Of a DNA stretch of 13,639 nucleotides, positions 82 through 13,600 are shown piece after piece. The stretch spans positions 1 to 13,639 of the forward strand of contig JBHHXT010000122.1 in the NCBI GenBank assembly GCA_046757165.1, given 5' to 3'. The first letter of the stretch is position 1. Each line of letters begins with the position of its first letter. This DNA comes from a bacterium. GTDB taxonomy: Bacteria; Zhuqueibacterota; Zhuqueibacteria; Oceanimicrobiales; Oceanimicrobiaceae. A model generated the notes under the pieces. The model made no database searches. It was not told where the DNA came from and worked only from the letters and a program-made list of their open reading frames with translations. The position numbers and the translations under genes are program-made.

Positions 82-1236
82 CTAGAATTCTTGAATTTTC
101 ATCCTTCTGTTCAGCTCCGCGCGGTCGATTCTGCCCCGGTCGTAGGCATCCAGGTCTTTCTTCATCGCCTGAACCGTCAAGCGCTCGGGCAGAGAATGCT
201 CCGGTAGCCAGGCGTGGTCGAAGTCCACTGAGACGATGATGGCTTCATCTTCCGGCAGGGTTCTCAGCGTGTGCCCGAAGTCACCAATGAGCTCGACCAG
301 AACTTGCTTGAAATATTCAAAACTCTCGGCCACCTGTTTCCGCTGCTGCCGTTGCTTGTCGACTTCAACCTCCTCCAGGTACTGCCTGACGTAGTCCGTC
401 ACAAAGGTGTCGGATTCCTTCAAGAGAAGATTGCTATTCAGGAAAAACAACACGCCCAGACCCTCGACGTAGGTGCCTTGTTTCTTCTCGAGCGCCCCAA
501 ATTCCTGGTTGTGCTTTTGACTGAGCGCGGTGGACAGAATGTTTGCCATGATCTCGACATTGCGCCTCATCGCCTCGTCGCTCTCCTGCTCTTTGAAGGC
601 AAGCTTCTGACGAAACTGGTGCAGGGAGAGCTTGCCGCGACGATAGTCAACAATGTCTGACTTCCTGGCAGAGGCTTGGACCAGCCCGTTCTGGGGTCGC
701 GTCTCCTCGGGTTCAAAGTCAAAGACCGCCAGATTTGAACGGGGCAGAACCAGCACGGTGATGCGGTCCTCGGCCCGCATCTGTCCAATGGCGTCCGCAT
801 AGTTGCCCAGGAACTCGACAACCTGCTGCATGAGTCCCTCCCCGGTCACGCTCTTGCGGTCGAGGCGGTCCCGCGGACTGGCCACCACGACTGGCGCCGG
901 GTCATCCGGATCCGTTTTCACTTTGATCACCGCGTTGGGCTCGTGCAAGATGACTTCATTCAATTCATTGTTGCTCCAAACGAAATGAAAGATACCGTCG
1001 CGGTCCACCAGGAAAACCACGCCATACCCTTCAAAGTACACGCCGCGCACGTTGCCATGAAATGGCTCAATCAAGTGCCGGGGCGTCATGAGTTTGCTCA
1101 GCACGCCTTCCATGATGTCCAGGTCGCGCTGCATGCGCTTCCAATCGAGAGCCTCGGACCTCTGGGCCAGCAAGCTCGGCGCCAGAAGGAGCACCGAGGC
1201 AAGCATCGCCATCCATCTGGTTGAGATAAGCTTCAT
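82..1236 (-). CDS. Exported hypothetical protein with two tandem homologous domains; third gene of the ECF sigma/anti-sigma operon
   Basis: 384-aa ORF; AGGAG RBS 6 nt before ATG; N-terminal signal peptide (MKLISTRWMAMLASVLLLAPSLLA-Q); starts 16 nt after the anti-sigma stop; internal duplication visible (GVYFEGYGVVF vs GTYVEGLGVLF). Confidence 0.85.
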   Translation of the reverse strand: MKLISTRWMAMLASVLLLAPSLLAQRSEALDWKRMQRDLDIMEGVLSKLMTPRHLIEPFHGNVRGVYFEGYGVVFLVDRDGIFHFVWSNNELNEVILHEPNAVIKVKTDPDDPAPVVVASPRDRLDRKSVTGEGLMQQVVEFLGNYADAIGQMRAEDRITVLVLPRSNLAVFDFEPEETRPQNGLVQASARKSDIVDYRRGKLSLHQFRQKLAFKEQESDEAMRRNVEIMANILSTALSQKHNQEFGALEKKQGTYVEGLGVLFFLNSNLLLKESDTFVTDYVRQYLEEVEVDKQRQQRKQVAESFEYFKQVLVELIGDFGHTLRTLPEDEAIIVSVDFDHAWLPEHSLPERLTVQAMKKDLDAYDRGRIDRAELNRRMKIQEF

Positions 1237-1252
1237 CTTGTTCTCCTGATCG

Positions 1253-1957
1253 TCATTTGTTGTCGCGTCCAGCGTCCGGCCGCTGCGACACCTGCATGAG
1301 ACGTTGCAGCGCCTCGTTTGTCCGTTGCAACCGGTGGCGGTTTGACAACTGAAAGGTCTCGAGACCGCGGCCGACCCAGTGCAAGTCCTGCCGTCGCTGC
1401 CTCTCGAACTTCCTCGCGAGCCGGGTCAACGCAGCCCGGCTCTCCTGCCGCTGCCGTTCATCCAACTCCTGAATGAGCTGTCGCAGGTCCTGATAAGCGT
1501 CCTCTTTCCACAGGTCGAATTCCTCCCGGGTGACGGGGGTCGCAGACGATTCCGGCAAGGAATCCGCCCTGCGCTCAGACGGTGGCCGCAGACCAAACTG
1601 CAGAGTGAGGTTCCCCTGCTCGTAAGTCGCGCGCAGATTCACCAGGACCAGGATGATCAGCACCACGGCTAACCCAACCATCACGCCAGGCCCCAGCCGG
1701 CGCCAGCCTCTCGTGCGAAAGCTGGCAGAGCTGCCCGGGCTCGCACGGGGTGCCGACACTGCCGGGAAGGTTAGATTGAAATCCGGCACCTCATCTGCTG
1801 ACAGACGGAGCAGTCGCGAAGTCTCCTGCAATCTCGCCAGCACCCGCTTGCAGGTTCGACACGTTCTGGCATGGGTCTCCACCTGTGCATACTCCGTCTC
1901 CGACAGTTCGGCATAAAGATATGCAATCAACTGTTCTTTTGAAAAATCACATCTCAT
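1253..1957 (-). CDS. Zinc-binding (zf-HC2/ZAS) transmembrane anti-sigma factor
   Basis: Start reassigned to ATG at 1957 (MRCDFSKEQLIAYL...), overlapping the sigma gene end by 11 nt; N-terminal Cys plus HARTCRTC (HxxxCxxC); one TM helix (GVMVGLAVVLIILVLV); charged helical C-terminal region; 234 aa. Confidence 0.88.
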   Translation of the reverse strand: MRCDFSKEQLIAYLYAELSETEYAQVETHARTCRTCKRVLARLQETSRLLRLSADEVPDFNLTFPAVSAPRASPGSSASFRTRGWRRLGPGVMVGLAVVLIILVLVNLRATYEQGNLTLQFGLRPPSERRADSLPESSATPVTREEFDLWKEDAYQDLRQLIQELDERQRQESRAALTRLARKFERQRRQDLHWVGRGLETFQLSNRHRLQRTNEALQRLMQVSQRPDAGRDNK

Positions 1958-2549
1958 CGTTGACGCTCTCCTTATCAATCTTCCATTCTTTGAAAACTTT
2001 GCGCAAAGCCGCAAGCCCATAATACATCCTCGATTTTGCGGTATTTTCGGAGATGCCTAGAATATCGGCGATTTCCTTGAACTTCAGATTCTGGTACTCT
2101 TTCATAATGATGACCACGCGCTGCGGTTCTGATATTTCCTGCAAGGCACGATTGAGCAGATGGGTCAGGTCGTTGGCACACGCCTGCTGCTCGGGATCCG
2201 GTTGCGGTTCAGGCGGCACCAGATCTTCTCCATCATGTCCGCCGTTCGAATTCTCGCGCAGCTCATCCAGAGACAAAAGTGGTCGCCGTTTGATGGCTTT
2301 CAGCTCATCGCGGCAGAGATTGACGGCAATTTGAAAAAGCCAGGTCGAGAATTTCTCCACCTGCTGCAGCCCGTGTAGCTTGTCGTAAACCCGAACGAAA
2401 GTCTTCTGGCTGATATCCCTCGCAAGCTCGCGATCGCCGAGATAGCGTGAGATGAAATTGTACACGGGCTTCTGCCATCTCCACACCAGGGTGTTGAAGG
2501 CATGGACATTGCCATCCAGGAACTGCACGATGAGTTTGTCGTCTGTCAT
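1947..2549 (-). CDS. ECF-family RNA polymerase sigma-70 factor
   Basis: Region 2 (DISQKTFVRVY...FSTWLFQIAVNLCRD) and region 4 HTH (LKFKEIADILGISENTAKSRMYYG); typical start MTDDKLIV...GNVHAFNTLV. Start at 2549 preferred over 2603 because an ECF-type promoter overlaps 2603. Confidence 0.93.
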   Translation of the reverse strand: MTDDKLIVQFLDGNVHAFNTLVWRWQKPVYNFISRYLGDRELARDISQKTFVRVYDKLHGLQQVEKFSTWLFQIAVNLCRDELKAIKRRPLLSLDELRENSNGGHDGEDLVPPEPQPDPEQQACANDLTHLLNRALQEISEPQRVVIIMKEYQNLKFKEIADILGISENTAKSRMYYGLAALRKVFKEWKIDKESVNDEM

Positions 2550-2585
2550 GAATCGTTGAGGTTCGATTACTCTTGCATACCGTTT

Positions 2586-2612
2586 GACGACTGAAACGCG
2601 CATAAAGTTTTA
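2586..2612 (-). promoter_or_regulatory. Candidate autoregulatory ECF promoter
   Basis: Minus strand reads TAAAAC-N17-CGTC(AA), matching the generic ECF AAC...CGT pattern, 36 nt upstream of the sigma ATG at 2549. Confidence 0.6.
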
Positions 2613-2690: not shown

Positions 2691-2733
2691 TTCTAAAGTG
2701 TTCAGCAACCCACATAACATTCGAGGAGAACTT

Positions 2734-3729
2734 ATGAACGTTCTGCAACAGATATTCTGGTGTTCCGGCACATTGCTCCTGACTCTCTTCACAGGTAGTT
2801 ATGCCCAAAACAATGACCTGCCAAAGGAATTCAGACAGATCATCCCCCGCGGCAGAATCGCTGCTATCTCACAACCCACTTTTGTCACCGCCCGGGAAGC
2901 AGACATCGGTGGCGACTCCTGGGTCCTGGGCGTTGTCATCGACGGGCAGGCGAAAGCCTATAGCCTCACCTTGCTCAACAGCCATGAGATCGTCAACGAC
3001 CGGATCGGTGACACCAATTTTGCGGCCGTGTGGTGACCGCTGGCCAACACGGCCGTCGTGTACGGCCGGGATTACCAGGGGAAAACCCTCAACTTCGAAG
3101 CCTCCGGGGGCCTGATCCACAGCTCCTTGGTGATGCAAGATTTCGAAACCGATTCCTACTGGGCGATCATGACGGGAGCGTCCATCGCCGGGGCGTTCAA
3201 AGGAACAAAACTGCAAGAATTGCCGATCGGCAAAAAAGTAAAGTGGAAAGACTGGGTCAAAGAACACCCGAACACGCTGATCCTCTCCGTCCGCGGCCGC
3301 GAAGACGGGGTCGACGTTTATCGTGATTATTTCTATTCGCCACAGGGATTTGGCGGCGAGCGCGCCCGGGATTCCCGCCTGCGCACAAAGGAGCCGATCT
3401 TTGCCTTCCGCTTCCATGGCAAGAACTACGCGATCGAGCTGAAATCCCTCGAGGGCGGCAGAGCCTTCGATGTCGATGGCACGACGGTATTCTTCTACCG
3501 GCCCAAAGGTGCGAAAATGTTTCATTCCACGCTCGCCTTCGCAAGTGGGGGCAGCGGCTTTAGCCGGGAAAGCGGCCAGTGGCAGGAAAACGATTCCGGC
3601 TGCATCTTCAACCCGGAAACCGGCAGGTTTGAAGGGGAGGACGCTTGCGCAAGCCGGCTGGACGGAGGCTTTGATACCTTTTGGTACAATTGGAGTTTGG
3701 CCAACCCAGAGACTGAAATCTTGAAATAG
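2734..3729 (+). CDS. DUF3179-family exported selenoprotein (331 aa, Sec101 encoded by TGA 3034-3036)
   Basis: ORFs 2698..3036 and 3058..3729 share one frame, separated only by TGA; read-through gives NFAAVW-U-PLANTAVVYGR, aligned with the family CPLC motif. DUF3179-like motifs lie on both sides (IAAISQPTF, AKAYSLTLLNSHEIVND; LVMQDFETDSYW, WKDWVKEHPNT, FWYNW...P). GAGGAG RBS, signal peptide, SECIS-like hairpin and adjacent tRNA-Sec. Confidence 0.9.
3037..3081 (+). promoter_or_regulatory. Bacterial SECIS element (putative)
   Basis: Directly after the TGA: lower stem CTGG (3040-3043)/CCAG (3075-3078), internal loop, perfect 7-bp upper stem CGGCCGT (3050-3056)/ACGGCCG (3062-3068), apical loop CGTGT with G at position 2 followed by U; 20 nt between UGA and loop. 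Confidence 0.78.
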
Positions 3730-3748: not shown

Positions 3749-3877
3749 GGTGTTCACGCTTTAGCGTGTCCACGCAGGGCGCGGTTTTGCAGGAAAGTAA
3801 ACCGGCGTGCCCCACCGCCCCGCAAGCTGAAGCTTGTACACCGGTCCGCCCCGATTCGGGAGTTCTGCTTTAGCGTG
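3749..3877. repeat. Cluster of three REP-like palindromic units
   Basis: GGTGTTCACGCTTTAGCGTG (+, 3749-3768), GGTGTACAAGCTTCAGCTTG (-, 3823-3842), degenerate GGAGTTCTGCTTTAGCGTG (+, 3859-3877). Confidence 0.7.
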
Positions 3878-3909: not shown

Positions 3910-3945
3910 AAACCCCGAGGTTAGCCCCCTCGGGGTTTTGTTTTT
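3910..3945. terminator. Intrinsic terminator, probably bidirectional, between the selenoprotein gene and selC
   Basis: 11-bp perfect stem AAACCCCGAGG (3910-3920)/CCTCGGGGTTT (3928-3938), 7-nt loop, T-rich tails on both strands. Confidence 0.85.
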
Positions 3946-3946
3946 G

Positions 3947-4045
3947 TGGCGGGAATGTGTGGGAATCGAACCCACCCATCCTGAGGCGACTCAGGACGCA
4001 ACGGTTTTGAAGACCGCGGAGGCCACCAGGCACCCATCCATTCCC
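3947..4045 (-). tRNA. selC: tRNA-Sec (anticodon TCA)
   Basis: 99 nt on the minus strand: acceptor GGGAATGG/ACATTCCC, long D-stem with 4-nt TGGT loop, anticodon arm GCGGT-CTTCAAA-ACCGT, 9-bp variable arm CGTCCTGAG/CTCAGGATG, T-arm GTGGG-TTCGATT-CCCAC, G discriminator and encoded CCA. Confidence 0.97.
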
Positions 4046-7129: not shown

Positions 7130-9991
7130 ATGCCGAACAGACCCACGCCTGGATTGCTCGAGAAGTTGGCCGAAAAACTGCGCCTCATCCCCGACCTTCA
7201 AAGTGAATCTTCCCCGGCGCTGTCACGTCTCACCGAGCCGGGCGACCTGACCGCTTACCCGCCGCCAGAACAGTGGCAGGATTGGGTCGAGTACGACGCC
7301 AAAAGCTGGCCCAGGGGCGAGGCCAAACACTATGTCATTGTGCCAACCGCGTGTTTCAACTGCGAGGCGGGGTGCGGACTGCTGAGCTACATCGACAAAG
7401 AGACCCTGCGAGTTCGCAAGTTCGAGGGCAATCCGTACCATCCTGGCAGCCGTGGCCGCAACTGTGCCAAGGGGCCGGCAACCATCAACCAAATCAACGA
7501 CACGGAGCGCATCCTTTACCCGCTCAAAAGAACCGGCAAGCGCGGCGAGGGCAAGTGGCAACGCTTGTCGTGGGACACCGTGCTGGACGAAATTGCGGGG
7601 CGCATCCGTGAAGCGTTACAGGATAAACGCAACAACGAAATCGCCTATCACGTCGGCCGGCCAGGCCACGAGGGCTACATCGACCGCGTCTTGAAGGCCT
7701 GGGGGGTCGACGGCCACAACAGCCACACCAACATCTGCTCAGCCGGCGCCAGATTTGGCTATGCCATCTGGCACGGTTTTGACCGGCCATCACCCGACCA
7801 CGCCAACGCCAGGTTCATCCTTCTCATCAGCGCCCATCTCGAATCAGGACATTATTTCAATCCGCACGCCCAACGCATCCTGGAAGGCATGATGAACGGC
7901 GCCAAACTTGCCGTGCTCGATCCCAGGCTCTCCAACACCGCCAGCATGGCTGACTACTGGCTTCCATCCTATCCCGGCAGCGAAGCCGCCATCCTGCTGG
8001 CCATCGCCAGAATCATTCTGCAAGAAGCGCTCTACAACGAGCCGTTCATGAAAACCTGGGTCAACTGGCAAACGTATCTCCAGAAAGAGAAGCCAAGCCT
8101 GGAGGTCACCTTCGAAAACTTCATCGCAGCGCTGCTGGAAGAGTACAAGGACTACACACCAGAGTTTGCCGAACAGGAGAGCGGCGTCCCGGCCGGGTTG
8201 ATCGTGAAGGTCGCGCAGCAAATCGGCGCGGCAGGCACGCGTTTCGCGAGCCATAACTGGCGCAGCGCCGGCAGCGGCAATCTCGGCGGCTGGGCAGTGG
8301 CGCGCTGTCTCCATTTTCTCAACGTGCTCACCGGCAGCGTCGGCACGGTCGGCGGCACGTCGCCCAGCGGCTGGAATAAATTCAAGCCGACGGTCTTTTC
8401 CCAGCCCCCGGCTGTGAAATTCTGGAATGAGCTGCACTTCCCAAACGAGTACCCCCTGGCACACTATGAAATGAGCTTCCTGCTGCCGCATTTTCTCAAG
8501 GAGGGCCGTGGCAAATTGTCGGTCTATTTCACGCGCGTTTTCAACCCGGTCTGGACGTACCCGGACGGATTCACCTGGATCGAAGCCCTGACCGATGAAT
8601 CCAAAATAGGCTTGCATGCCGCGCTGACCCCCACGTGGAATGAAACGGCCTACTTTGCGGACTATGTCCTGCCCATGGGCCACGCCAGCGAGCGGCACGA
8701 CATCATCAGCTACGAGACACACTCCGGGGTGTGGCTGGCGTTCAGGCAACCCGTGCTGCGAGCCGCTGCTCAGAAGATGGGCAAAGCCGTGACCTTCACC
8801 TACGAAACCAACCCGGGCGAAGTCTGGGAAGAAGATGAATTCTGGATCGAGCTCTCCTGCCGCATCGACCCGGATGGCACCCTCGGCATCAGGGAGCATT
8901 TTCTCTCTCCGTACCGGCCCGGCGAAAAAATCACCATCGACGAGTACTACCAGTACATCTTTGAACACGTCTCCGGGCTGCCGCAAACAGCGCAACAGGA
9001 GGGGCTGACGCCGCTGGATTATATGCGCAAATATGGCGCGTTTGAAGTTGAAAAAACCTCCTATGCCAAACACGGGAAAGAACTGCCGAAAAAAGCGCTC
9101 ACAGGCGTACAGATCGATTCGGCAACCCATACCATTTTCAAAGGAGGCAAGGCTGTTGGCGTGATGGCAGATGAGGTGGCCTGCTCTGGTTTCCCCACGC
9201 CCTCGCGCAAGCAAGAGTTCTATTCTGAAACGTTGGCGCGCTGGGGCTGGCCGCAGTACGCCATTCCCACCTACATCAAAAGCCACATCCATCCCGATGA
9301 GCTGGACCGTGAGAAGGGCGAGTTTCCCCTGGTGCCAACCTTTCGTCTGCCAACGCTGATTCACTCACGCTCCGGCAATGCCAAATGGCTCGCAGAGATC
9401 TCCAACCGCAACCCGGTCTGGATGCACACGAACGATGCTCGACGCCTCGGGGTGCAAACCGGCGATTTGCTGCGCGTCAACACGGATATCGGCTACTTCG
9501 TCGACAAAGTCTGGGTCACGGAGGGCATGAAGCCTGGCGTGGTCGCGTGCTCCCACCACCTGGGAAGATGGCGCCGGCCACAGGATGTCCCGGGCAACCG
9601 CTGGGCCACAAATCTCGTCACCATCGACCATGACGGCAACGGCAAGTGGCGCATGCGCTGCCTGGACGGGATCCGTCCTCACCAGAGCGAGGACCCGGAC
9701 ACGGCCAGAATCTTCTGGAGCGACGGCGGCGTGCACCAGAACATTACCTTCCCGGTCCATCCCGACCCGGTCAGTGGCATGCATTGCTGGCACCAGAAAG
9801 TGCGCATCGAGAAAGCCAAACCCGAAGACCGGTACGGCGATGTGGTGGTTGACACGCAGAAGTCCTTTCAGATTTACAAGCAATGGCTCGAGATGACCCG
9901 GCCCGCGCCTGGACCGGACGGGTTGCGCCGGCCCTTGTGGTTGAACCGGCCGCTGCGGCCGGCAGAGGCGCTCTACTACCTGGGCGAGTAG
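7130..9991 (+). CDS. Molybdopterin (bis-MGD) oxidoreductase catalytic subunit, DMSO reductase superfamily
   Basis: 953 aa; N-terminal 4Fe-4S motif CFNCEAGC-x-GRNCAKG; RILYPLKRTGKRGEGKWQRLSWD; SHTNICS with candidate Mo-ligand Cys203; DPRLSNTA; ETAYFADYVLP; C-terminal molydopterin dinucleotide-binding domain (HSRS, NPVWMHTNDARRLGVQTGD); GAGGA RBS; no Tat signal. Confidence 0.93.
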   Translation: MPNRPTPGLLEKLAEKLRLIPDLQSESSPALSRLTEPGDLTAYPPPEQWQDWVEYDAKSWPRGEAKHYVIVPTACFNCEAGCGLLSYIDKETLRVRKFEGNPYHPGSRGRNCAKGPATINQINDTERILYPLKRTGKRGEGKWQRLSWDTVLDEIAGRIREALQDKRNNEIAYHVGRPGHEGYIDRVLKAWGVDGHNSHTNICSAGARFGYAIWHGFDRPSPDHANARFILLISAHLESGHYFNPHAQRILEGMMNGAKLAVLDPRLSNTASMADYWLPSYPGSEAAILLAIARIILQEALYNEPFMKTWVNWQTYLQKEKPSLEVTFENFIAALLEEYKDYTPEFAEQESGVPAGLIVKVAQQIGAAGTRFASHNWRSAGSGNLGGWAVARCLHFLNVLTGSVGTVGGTSPSGWNKFKPTVFSQPPAVKFWNELHFPNEYPLAHYEMSFLLPHFLKEGRGKLSVYFTRVFNPVWTYPDGFTWIEALTDESKIGLHAALTPTWNETAYFADYVLPMGHASERHDIISYETHSGVWLAFRQPVLRAAAQKMGKAVTFTYETNPGEVWEEDEFWIELSCRIDPDGTLGIREHFLSPYRPGEKITIDEYYQYIFEHVSGLPQTAQQEGLTPLDYMRKYGAFEVEKTSYAKHGKELPKKALTGVQIDSATHTIFKGGKAVGVMADEVACSGFPTPSRKQEFYSETLARWGWPQYAIPTYIKSHIHPDELDREKGEFPLVPTFRLPTLIHSRSGNAKWLAEISNRNPVWMHTNDARRLGVQTGDLLRVNTDIGYFVDKVWVTEGMKPGVVACSHHLGRWRRPQDVPGNRWATNLVTIDHDGNGKWRMRCLDGIRPHQSEDPDTARIFWSDGGVHQNITFPVHPDPVSGMHCWHQKVRIEKAKPEDRYGDVVVDTQKSFQIYKQWLEMTRPAPGPDGLRRPLWLNRPLRPAEALYYLGE

Positions 9992-10084: not shown

Positions 10085-10113
10085 TTGACAAATTTCAGAT
10101 TTGTTCCTACATC
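10085..10113 (+). promoter_or_regulatory. Putative sigma-70 promoter with overlapping inverted repeat upstream of the TA remnant
   Basis: TTGACA (10085-10090)-N17-TACATC (10108-10113); inverted repeat ACAAAT (10088-10093)/ATTTGT (10099-10104). The -10 box is imperfect. Confidence 0.4.
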
Positions 10114-10160
10114 ATTCCAACTGGATTGTATTCTTCAACATGAGCAAGCGAGGTTTCAAA

Positions 10161-10494
10161 ATGCAAATAGATGACTATTTTGATTTTTTGGCCTCTGATG
10201 ACATTCGCTTGAAAGGCTCGCGTATCGGAATCGAGACGGTACTCTACGAGTACATTCATAAAGCAAAGGCCGGAGGCGATCCAGAGCAGCTTTCCAACGC
10301 TCTCCCTCGAGCAGGTTGACGCAACAATCCTCTACTATCTCAGGAACCCCAAAAAGGTCGAGGCTTACATAACGGACTGGTTGGAATGGGGTGAGCGGAT
10401 GAGGGCCAACCAGGCCAAAAACCCGCCGCCTGTCGTCATGAGACTACGGAGTCTCAAACAAAAAAGAGGAACAGTCGCAGAAGGTGAGTCGTGA
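10161..10494 (+). pseudogene. DUF433-family antitoxin, frameshifted
   Basis: MQIDDYFDFLASDDIRLKGSRIGIETVLYEYIHKAK continues in another frame near 10270 as PEAIQSSFPTLSLEQVDATILYYLRNPKKVEAYITDW... to TGA 10492-10494; both halves carry DUF433-like motifs (GSRIGIE; PE.I...FPTLSLEQV.A.I.YY). Confidence 0.82.
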
Positions 10495-10712
10495 GATATG
10501 TTTTTTGCTCGATGAAAATGTTGACCAACAACCGAAAATCGATGCCAGGACATTTGCGCGACCATTTATCCCAGGGTAGACATATTCCTGGTGTTTTCAT
10601 CTTGAACCCTAAGATGAGTATCTCAGACACAGCCAACGAGTTGGTCTTGATCTGGGGCGCTTCAGATGCAGATGAGTACCGCGACCTGGTTATTCATCTC
10701 CCGATAGCTTGA
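10484..10712 (+). pseudogene. DUF5615 PIN-like toxin with internal deletion and frameshift
   Basis: GTG 10484 gives MSREICFLLDENVD (LLDEN PIN start); at about 10522-10526 the frame switches to TNNRKSMPGHLRDHLSQGRHIPGVFIL...EYRDLVIHLP; the central segment expected between these motifs is absent. Confidence 0.78.
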
Positions 10713-10744
10713 CCCATCCATCTACGGCTTCACCCACCCTTTCC

Positions 10745-10773
10745 TTGACTTTTCCAAACCATTTCTGTACTTT
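10745..10773 (+). promoter_or_regulatory. Sigma-70 promoter of the M28 peptidase gene (putative)
   Basis: TTGACT (10745-10750)-N17-TACTTT (10768-10773), 52 nt upstream of ATG 10826. Confidence 0.6.
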
Positions 10774-10825
10774 TGCGCCAGACTCGCCTCAGGATTCACA
10801 CACATTATCACAACCGGAGGGAACC

Positions 10826-13135
10826 ATGCGTATTTGGAATCGACTCTTCTTGTCGCTCATCCTGCTATTTCCGTACCGAGCTTACTCGCAATGGCAGGGA
10901 TTCAGTGCGGACAGCGCTTATGCCTACACGCACCATCTCAGCGTCACCATCGGTCCGCGCCCGATGGGATCAGCCAATGAACAAGCCGCCTTGCGGTGGG
11001 CGGTGCAAAAGTTTGCGGAATTCGGGGCAGACACGGCTTTCGTTCTCGATCTCACAAAGGCAAAAACCAGAAACACGGTCCTCAACACGCACAGTGGCAC
11101 GGCGGTGGGGGTTTTCAAAGGGGAAACGGATTCCACCATCGTCATCGGCGGGCACATCGATTCCTCTGCCAGAGAACATCCGGGCGCAAACGACGATGCC
11201 TCTGGCACCGCCTGTGCCGTGGAGCTGGCGCGCCTCTGGAGCCAGCGGCCGCGCCACTATACGCTAGTCTTTGCCACCTTCGGCGGCGAAGAATCCGGCT
11301 TGATCGGCTCGAAACATTTCGTGGGCCACTATCCAGACATCGATGATGTGGTGCTCATGCTGCACGTCGACATGGCGGGTGCCACCGGGCCGCTGATTCC
11401 GTTCATCGAAAGCGGTGAAAAACAGACGCCGGAGTGGCTGGTTGAAGATGCGTTCGCCGTCGAAAGAACCGTCGGTTCTGCGAGCTTGCGCTATCCCGTG
11501 TACTTTTTTTCTCTCAATGCGCCCCTCGGGGCTGCCAGCTCCGACCATTCCCCGTTCATCGAAAAGGGGATCCCGGCGATCACCTTCACGGCGGGGGTGA
11601 GCACCTCGCCGGTTCATACCCAGCAAGACAAGATCGAGTTTGTCGACAAGACCATGCTCGCCAGAAGCGGCAACCTGGTCGACGGCCTGATCAAAAAATA
11701 CCAGGCGCACGGCATCCCGGCACCGAGAACCGGCGACTACCTGCTGTGGCCGATTTGGGGCGGACGCTTCTTCATCCCCGCCTGGCTGGTCCTATCGCTG
11801 GTGATTCTCTCGCTGGTGCTCGGCGCCTGGGCTTTCATGTACAGCCGCGAACGCCGCCTGCAAATTCCGAAAACCGAACGGGTGCGGTTCTCCGGCTGGA
11901 AGCTCCTCCTGATCATGGCGCTGATCGCGATTTTTACTCAGCTCGGTGAAGCGGGCATGCAACTGCTGAAGGGGTTGCGCTATCCCTGGCTGGCACATGT
12001 GAACAAATACCTCATATTCGCCGCCATCTGGGCAGTCGCGGGTATCTGGAGCGCCAGCCAGCTCACCCGGCTCTGGCGCTTTAGTCCGGACCCATATGTG
12101 TACACCAAACGGGCGCTCGGCATGCTGGTCGTTTTCATTTTGCTTCTGGGCATTGCAAGCCTACGTCTCGCCTTGCATCCGTCCTTGACCTTAGTGCTCA
12201 TCAGTCTGGCCATCTTCGTGCCGAGTCCCCTGTTCAAACTCGTCATCGGTTTGATCGCCCCGGTGCCGATGTTCAAGCTGATGTTTATGGAAGTCTTTCC
12301 GTTTCTGGCGCACAACTTCAGCCTGATCGGCTTTGGCATTGACAGCTCCGTTAAGGCCTTTCTTTACAGCGCAACCATCACAGCCCTTCTCGTCATCTGG
12401 TACCTACCGTCCATCTATTTCTATTCCTACCTGTTGGTTTCCATCAAGCCGCTACAGACTATCTTGCAACGTCTGCGAAATCCTGTTGTTGGCACCGGTC
12501 TGCTCCTGGCCATTTTCGGCTATGGTGGCTACCTGTACTCGTTCCCGGCCTACACCGAGATGTGGCGGGCACGGATCAGCGTCAATGCCGACTATGACAT
12601 GCAAAGCGGCGAAAGCGAGCTAAAGTTAGTCGGCAACGAATATTTCCGCAACGTCACCGTCACCACTGACTCGCTCAACCGGCACTATGACGACAAAATC
12701 CACCACGACGACTTGCCCATTGCCTTTCAGGCCAATTGGATGACGGTTGCCGGCACAGAAACGCTCCGCGTTGGCCAGGACAACACGGTCGACATCGACT
12801 GGCTGATCGCCAGCAGCAAACCGTGGCTGCGGGCACAAGTCACGATTCAAGCAGACACACTCGGTGTCCAGGAGGTGTCCTCAGAGCTGGGATTTACCCA
12901 CAAGGACGAGCAGGCGAGGTTTACCTGGTACTCCGAGCCACCGGACAGCCTGCAGCTGAAAGCAAATCTGACCCTGACACCGGGCGCAAGGCTCATCCGG
13001 GAGATCAAAGCCACTTACGCGGAAATGCCAGTCGCCATCGAGGTGACAGCCGACTTGGCTGAGGTGCGCTACCGGACGTCGGTTGTGCGACGGGATACGC
13101 TGGCGGTTCTGGGAACGCAATCGACACAGAAATGA
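10826..13135 (+). CDS. M28-family metallopeptidase with a multi-pass membrane domain
   Basis: Start reassigned to ATG 10826 (GGAGG RBS, signal peptide MRIWNRLFLSLILLF...); zinc-ligand motifs GGHIDS, GANDDASG, GEESGLIGS, HVDMAG, SDHSPF, VHTQQD; about 8-9 hydrophobic helices, then a soluble C-terminal domain; 769 aa; ends TGA TAA TAG. Confidence 0.92.
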   Translation: MRIWNRLFLSLILLFPYRAYSQWQGFSADSAYAYTHHLSVTIGPRPMGSANEQAALRWAVQKFAEFGADTAFVLDLTKAKTRNTVLNTHSGTAVGVFKGETDSTIVIGGHIDSSAREHPGANDDASGTACAVELARLWSQRPRHYTLVFATFGGEESGLIGSKHFVGHYPDIDDVVLMLHVDMAGATGPLIPFIESGEKQTPEWLVEDAFAVERTVGSASLRYPVYFFSLNAPLGAASSDHSPFIEKGIPAITFTAGVSTSPVHTQQDKIEFVDKTMLARSGNLVDGLIKKYQAHGIPAPRTGDYLLWPIWGGRFFIPAWLVLSLVILSLVLGAWAFMYSRERRLQIPKTERVRFSGWKLLLIMALIAIFTQLGEAGMQLLKGLRYPWLAHVNKYLIFAAIWAVAGIWSASQLTRLWRFSPDPYVYTKRALGMLVVFILLLGIASLRLALHPSLTLVLISLAIFVPSPLFKLVIGLIAPVPMFKLMFMEVFPFLAHNFSLIGFGIDSSVKAFLYSATITALLVIWYLPSIYFYSYLLVSIKPLQTILQRLRNPVVGTGLLLAIFGYGGYLYSFPAYTEMWRARISVNADYDMQSGESELKLVGNEYFRNVTVTTDSLNRHYDDKIHHDDLPIAFQANWMTVAGTETLRVGQDNTVDIDWLIASSKPWLRAQVTIQADTLGVQEVSSELGFTHKDEQARFTWYSEPPDSLQLKANLTLTPGARLIREIKATYAEMPVAIEVTADLAEVRYRTSVVRRDTLAVLGTQSTQK

Positions 13136-13195: not shown

Positions 13196-13600
13196 GCACT
13201 TGTCACGCTCGGGCACAAATTCTTGGGCAACGACTATGTTTATGCGATCCAGGACATCCGAGGTCGCTCTAAATCAGAGGGCGATTATGCCACCTATCGC
13301 GTACCTCGAGGGGCCTTTGATAAGACCGAGACCGACGAGACTACAGACGCATGGGACACCATAGACTGGCTGGTGAAAAACATACCTTCAAACGGCCGGG
13401 TCGGCACATGGGGTACATCCTACCGGGGCTGGCTCACGCTCGCGGCCATGCGCAATCCGCATCCGGCGCTCGCCGCTGCCGTCCCGTTCAATCCCGTTGT
13501 GGATGTCTGGAAGGCCGATGACTGGTTTCATTGGGGCACTTTTCGTGCGACCTATGCGTTTTCGTACATCTATGAGATGGAAACCCGAACGAAAGCATAA
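13196..13600 (+). pseudogene. CocE/NonD (S15-like) alpha/beta hydrolase fragment
   Basis: YVYAIQDIRGRSKSEG, DAWDTIDWLVKN, GRVGTWGTSYRG (GxSYxG nucleophile), HPALAAAVP, DDWFHWG; in-frame TAG at 13166-13168 upstream, no RBS, TAA at 13598-13600; about 135 codons versus roughly 550-650 aa for intact members. Confidence 0.8.

Follow-up and report, generated by a model that had tools for sequence, protein, structure and literature searches.

Tables in two papers list DUF3179 among the selenoprotein families, with the motif UxxC/T, where U is selenocysteine (Sec) (PMC9312934; PMC13188914), in agreement with the Sec-containing members mentioned in a preliminary description of the DNA analyzed here. 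In the passages that hold these table entries, no fold, location or mechanism is given. The former paper cites PMC1976440 for DUF3179, and the latter carries PMC1976440, or its number, in its list; the name DUF3179 is absent from section 12 of PMC1976440, and the equivalence to one OS_HP family is something we infer. In the accessible part of PMC9230427, a DUF3179 protein appears only within a table of CXXCH-bearing proteins. Among exported selenoproteins, MccSep has been shown to be periplasmic (PMC13510729) and SaoB carries a signal sequence (bioRxiv 10.1101/2022.07.06.499078), as far as the accessible parts of these reports extend. The window analyzed here, a stretch of 13,639 nucleotides (contig JBHHXT010000122.1, assembly GCA_046757165.1, Zhuqueibacterota), contains a DUF3179 gene whose internal TGA very probably encodes selenocysteine in an exported protein. 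An NCBI record is already titled 'DUF3179 domain-containing (seleno)protein', and calling the product a selenoprotein is not in itself new; what is new is the UxxA variant of the motif of a known Sec family.

Two open reading frames (2734-3036 and 3058-3729) lie in the same frame, and the TGA at 3034-3036 is the only break. With UGA decoded as U, a protein of 331 residues results, with a single recoded codon (U101), a TAG stop and the sequence W-U-P-L-A-N-T-A-V-V-Y at residues 100-110. The Pfam profile search proposed for the joined protein found PF11376 running across the TGA (residues 41-327, E 7.9e-50, 170.4 bits against a cut-off of 27, model positions 3-292 of 292); an NCBIfam search of the 331-residue protein returned no family. 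Codon 101 is bridged, with no alternative letter, in contigs from three of four public runs, which belong to a single study and possibly to the source sample; no RNA data set was among the holders listed.

Among 59 related loci in GTDB genomes (two loci come from one genome), 53 span codon 101, with TGA in 51, TGG in one and TCT in one; L053-L057 and L059 gave no match over residue 101. The TGA recurs at the same codon in several phyla, flanked on either side by open frames; KSB1, Calditrichota, Acidobacteriota, Gammaproteobacteria, Planctomycetota and Latescibacterota are among the names in the record titles. In 117 full-length database homologues, the column of residue 101 holds Cys in 103 and Ser in 12. 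Trp, which the preliminary description had named as evidence against selenocysteine, is found in none. CxxC is the commonest motif in the distant homologues (76 of 94 Cys rows). Of the best 120 database hits, 10 cover residue 101, and among the remaining 110 the most frequent starts fall directly after the TGA; gene callers therefore split these genes, as had been suspected for this one.

Matches to selA, selB and selD above their cut-offs are present in the source genome (G000), as is selC; a TGA aligned to Cys in homologues together with these four genes is what is looked for in a bacterial selenoprotein. In this genome, the gene after selB is a selD that itself contains an in-frame TGA (G000:C43:27035-29678), and a second selD match lies inside a 757-residue frame (G000:C171:910-1833). 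Over the genomes behind loci L001-L050 (L051-L059 were excluded from this search), selA was matched in 47 of 50 versus 1 of 14 control genomes. The three genomes lacking a match are TGA-bearing metagenome-assembled genomes of unstated completeness. Both genomes with another codon retain selA; at one of these loci TGG is found with the hairpin letters kept (L033:5217-5219) and at the other TCT (L039:5193-5195), possibly through loss of Sec or sequencing error. The product of the gene is almost certainly a selenoprotein.

The SECIS-like (selenocysteine insertion sequence) hairpin noticed directly after the TGA fits the published bacterial model and covaries. This bSECIS model has a loop of 3-9 nt with G as its first or second base, a stem of 4-16 bp, a distance of 16-37 nt from the UGA and a minimum free energy at or below -7.5 (PMC13188914). 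The hairpin has a 5-nt loop and a 7-bp stem, and the segment 3034-3085 folds at -23.7 kcal/mol (z -2.58, with 5 of 200 shuffles equally good); four other windows gave z from -1.34 to -2.38. Over 51 distinct rows, 87% of the stem cells pair compared to 18-49% in slid controls, and two-sided stem changes number 13 against 3.0 in shuffled alignments (0 of 500 shuffles). Several observations weigh against this assignment: one pair is open in 29 of the 51 rows, RNAalifold retains just three pairs, the loop G also opens a conserved Val codon, and related rows are not independent of one another. A better control is the comparison of TGA and Cys/Ser paralogues: the loop letters CGTGT are found in all 10 TGA loci and in none of the 14 Cys/Ser loci, with 10 of the 34 loci giving no pattern match. 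A genome-wide scan for TGA with the same loop gave 20 hits, three of which are DUF3179 genes; the others were unconvincing by eye.

The missing adjacent thiol is real and typical of the whole subfamily, since 50 of the 51 TGA loci read U-x-x-A and the remaining one U-x-x-S. Other Sec paralogues carry T, V, E or C at the fourth position, which is therefore free, and Sec would appear to work without a neighboring thiol. Cys and Ser forms are interleaved on a tree made with a quick method, which has many open forks (L005 and three loci with frame problems, L006, L035 and L058, were left out of the protein alignment and the tree). The family comprises 11,175 representatives (E up to 0.001), and the source genome holds five DUF3179 genes, three of them with TGA. 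The four other genes are U-P-L-T (G000:C189:7457-8104), U-P-L-V (C98:10817-11278, about 230 residues and apparently one repeat), a lipoprotein-like C-P-L-T (C135:629-1555) and a C-I-L-A form with membrane helices (C60:5777-6658); the SECIS loop position is identical in both further Sec genes.

Export via a signal peptide is likely. The hydrophobic segment of the window protein itself is weak (1.61), and a hydropathy peak of at least 1.6 near the N-terminus is found in 49 of 52 read-through proteins, some of them with lipobox-like ends, in line with the signal peptide put forward in the preliminary description. Two DUF3179 paralogues carry type IX secretion system tails. The suggestion that an exported selenoprotein is unusual does not stand, given MccSep and SaoB/SaoX. 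Both SelB/SECIS decoding of UGA101 and signal-peptide export are well supported as predictions.

The mature protein is a tandem duplication. Each copy is predicted, with moderate confidence, to adopt a Rieske-like beta fold without Fe-S ligands. Repeat 1 contains the conserved residues His84, Glu85, Sec101, Arg112, Asp136, Thr139 and Trp143, with His84 and Glu85 conserved at 92%, and invariant aromatic residues are present in the alignment. By hairpin register, Sec101 would end a strand of repeat 1 opposite His84/Glu85. Neither the protein nor a 60-sequence profile gave any PDB sequence hit to E 10, Foldseek gave none at E 0.001 and only weak propeller rows, and the HHalign scores against 37 natural Rieske domains (40 rows minus three spurious or duplicate ones) were not significant (11.5 and 17.3, where block shuffles reached up to 19.0 and 17.3). 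The Rieske ligand boxes C-x-H and C-x-x-H are absent from the sequence and the alignment, and there is no PF00355 hit. Ferredoxin ligand numbering served to place Sec relative to the Rieske ligands. A Sec at a Rieske ligand position was rejected, as range offsets and a weak profile register put Sec101 on an earlier hairpin. No family or fold match to Trx, MsrA or MsrB was found among the matches listed (Pfam, NCBIfam, fold searches).

We propose that SelB decodes UGA101 as selenocysteine via the SECIS inside the coding sequence, that the signal peptide exports the 331-residue protein, and that its mature form, with two Rieske-like beta copies, acts as a single-selenol oxidoreductase of the cell envelope. 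Sec101 would attack an oxidized substrate, candidates being a sulfoxide, a peroxide or an S-S/persulfide bond. Because no resolving Cys is conserved, the oxidized selenium would be reduced in trans by a TlpA-like redoxin, itself supplied by DsbD/CcdA, comparable to periplasmic PilB; Cys290-Cys305 would serve as an optional structural disulfide. A DsbD-type gene is present in the source genome. Of 150 long representatives listed, 35 were scanned, and 10 of these carry, behind a hydrophobic leader, an N-terminal AhpC/TSA-Redoxin domain that contains a separate CxxC; every one of these fusions belongs to the distant C-P-L-C group, and a single event may account for them all. A search for longer fused forms gave none among 7,999 candidates, which is weak evidence. 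In other representatives, DUF3179 is fused three times, with fibronectin III domains, an ArsP_1-type permease or a vWA domain (P0122, P0182 and P0261). A redox mechanism of the Sec101 protein has about an even chance of being right, and the whole explanation, from SECIS decoding to recycling in trans, slightly less than that. More doubtful is its extension to DUF3179 at large as envelope thiol/selenol oxidoreductases with a duplicated cluster-free Rieske fold, in which UxxA would be the single-selenol form recycled by TlpA/DsbD and one genome would hold three Sec and two Cys versions.

The alternative that survives best, which we consider somewhat unlikely, is a selenoprotein in which Sec101 and His84/Glu85 (with the second Cys in CxxC members) bind a soft metal or metalloid (Cu, Zn, Hg, As), so that the protein would be a periplasmic chaperone, carrier or sensor with no redox cycling. 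The conservation of His84/Glu85, probably adjacent to Sec, is consistent with this, as are the permease fusion in one of the 35 homologues, the DUF2064/TIGR04282 genes near some paralogues, feoAB near four related loci (three titled Acidobacteriota) and the precedent of SaoB as an exported Sec metal-binding protein (accessible part of bioRxiv 10.1101/2022.07.06.499078). However, the second ligand position allows Ala, Val and Thr, redoxin fusions (10/35) outnumber permease fusions (1/35), and no metal transporter is conserved next to the UxxA subfamily. Rather improbable is a role of Sec as the nucleophile of a non-redox envelope enzyme, with a Sec/Cys/Ser-His-Glu triad in a hydrolase or a transferase. 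Of the 117 spanning homologues, 12 have Ser in place of Cys, comparable to hydrolases that swap their nucleophile; in addition, the His and the Glu are conserved, and the invariant aromatics could line a pocket; against this, CxxC prevails in the distant homologues, a hydrolase fold was unmatched in the fold searches, and known Sec/Cys pairs are mainly redox (PMC9312934, in the part consulted).

The C-terminal Cys pair, for which the preliminary description offered a resolving or a disulfide role, is present in the window protein. In the 48 intact TGA loci (the frame-damaged L006, L035 and L058 are omitted), both Cys are found in 22, which would allow same-chain resolving thiols for Sec101, but 24 have no Cys after Sec, with the motif unchanged, and two have one; this does not fit a required resolving pair, and such a role is very improbable. 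The two Cys are gained and lost together, as expected of a structural disulfide in an exported protein, and the disulfide option fits. A reading of the TGA as a genuine stop, as an error or as coding for Trp (pseudogene, split gene, alternative code) is largely refuted already and extremely improbable, since the TGG and TCT loci and the three selA-less genomes, all with TGA loci, stand against a TGA kept across phyla within open frames, homologues without Trp, a covarying SECIS, agreeing contigs from three runs and the unstated completeness of those three genomes.

Features of the window are collected in the table below. The preliminary description put the tRNA-Sec gene about 220 nt past the stop; the measured distance is 218 nt. 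It was rejected as an operon partner, being on the opposite strand, behind the terminator-like hairpin, and nearby in only 5 of the 59 loci. Neighborhoods of the related loci revealed no shared function and no pointer to a substrate. A divergent cluster (82-2603, minus strand) encodes an extracytoplasmic function sigma factor, a zf-HC2 anti-sigma factor and a 384-residue protein without Pfam hit; the sigma/anti-sigma pair is in the same place in seven close relatives only, with the orphan gene in six, five of which then have a PDZ protein. In L040, L045, L047 and L052, three of them titled Acidobacteriota, the UxxA gene comes after genes for a sodium:sulfate symporter and a PDZ protein, with feoA/feoB nearby. 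DUF3179 paralogues of relatives (L116, L119, L124, L129; L060, L064, L111, L118, L132) lie near DUF2064/TIGR04282 genes, and also near a lipid kinase gene or a VTT gene and a protein of 290-310 residues that recurs and has no Pfam/NCBIfam hit.

Between the gene and the tRNA-Sec gene, paired short palindromic motifs (3749-3845; 139 blastn hits on 78 contigs genome-wide) are far over-covered in metagenome contigs, and presumably form an element of the REP/REPIN type. On the plus strand follow a 953-residue molybdopterin oxidoreductase (7130-9991), under every NCBIfam cut-off and with DMSO/selenate and thiosulfate reductase as nearest models; two short open reading frames without Pfam hits (10101-10712), which we liken to a DUF433/PIN-like pair that has been broken; an M28 peptidase containing a long membrane region (10709-13135); and, close to the end of the contig, a short fragment of an S15 peptidase (13223-13600).

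Table. Coordinates of features of the DUF3179 locus in the window.
Feature	Position	Strand	Details
Ribosome-binding site GAGGAG	2723..2728	+	5 nt ahead of ATG 2734; read from sequence
DUF3179 (PF11376) selenoprotein gene, 331 residues, TGA predicted as Sec	2734..3729	+	translation, Pfam, homologues
Probable cleavable signal peptide, about residues 1-24	2734..2805	+	sequence and hydrophobic homologue N-termini
Repeat 1, about residues 62-172	2917..3249	+	predicted Rieske-like fold without cluster ligands
In-frame TGA, putative Sec101	3034..3036	+	first Cys of the family C-P-L-C motif; here U-P-L-A
Putative bSECIS upper stem-loop	3050..3068	+	stem 3050-3056/3062-3068, loop CGUGU, G second, 20 nt after UGA
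Repeat 2, residues 214-331	3373..3726	+	diverged copy; optional Cys290/Cys305; invariant F-D-T-F-W-Y-N-W end
Terminator-like hairpin	3910..3938	.	scored on both strands, between gene and tRNA-Sec; consensus scan only
tRNA-Sec (selC)	3947..4045	-	RF01852, 69.7 bits; convergent with the DUF3179 gene

This is a real mis-annotated selenoprotein gene, for which the structural and functional leads are new but moderate. It corrects a widely split gene of a subfamily recorded mainly as fragments, and provides the first testable handles found for a large family of unknown function, namely a predicted fold, a possible active site (His84, Glu85, Sec101) and a possible source of electrons. Should the redox role prove true, envelope redox biology would gain a non-thioredoxin scaffold, unrelated to the thioredoxin or Msr folds. 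No publication on UxxA or on the DUF3179 fold or fusions was found in a literature scope without most subscription papers and some supplements, and the accessible part of the BSepDB supplement (PMC13326102) gave no match.

Compared to known systems, the likeness is partial in each case. In contrast to the Rieske [2Fe-2S] fold of the toluene/naphthalene dioxygenase ferredoxins (3dqy, 2qpz) and a NirD-like protein (3c0d), the DUF3179 protein lacks the C-x-H/C-x-x-H boxes and appears, in a weak register, to have Arg112, Asp136 and Thr139 at the ligand places; it also has a tandem copy, Sec on a different hairpin and no significant sequence-profile match. PilB, a TlpA-like redoxin fused to MsrA/MsrB with a DsbD relay (PMC6210582, accessible part), is similar to the enzyme proposed here in that its recycling in the envelope depends on a thioredoxin-like domain, fused or separate, with the same kind of fusion in distant DUF3179 proteins, whereas no sequence or fold likeness to MsrA/MsrB was found in the searches above and the window protein is without a fused redoxin. 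Like this gene, for which the signal peptide is probable, MccSep/ExtKL and SaoB/SaoX combine a signal peptide with an in-frame UGA and were recorded as two genes until corrected, in the parts of PMC13510729 and bioRxiv 10.1101/2022.07.06.499078 consulted; the former is a multiheme cytochrome and the latter an ABC substrate-binding protein, with folds unrelated to DUF3179. The listed DUF3179 Sec family belongs to the same Pfam entry as the window gene, likewise has Sec in place of the first Cys in a CxxC-type motif and a SECIS in the coding sequence, and differs in the motif: U-P-L-A is a variant that widens the listed UxxC/T to UxxA/S/V/E.
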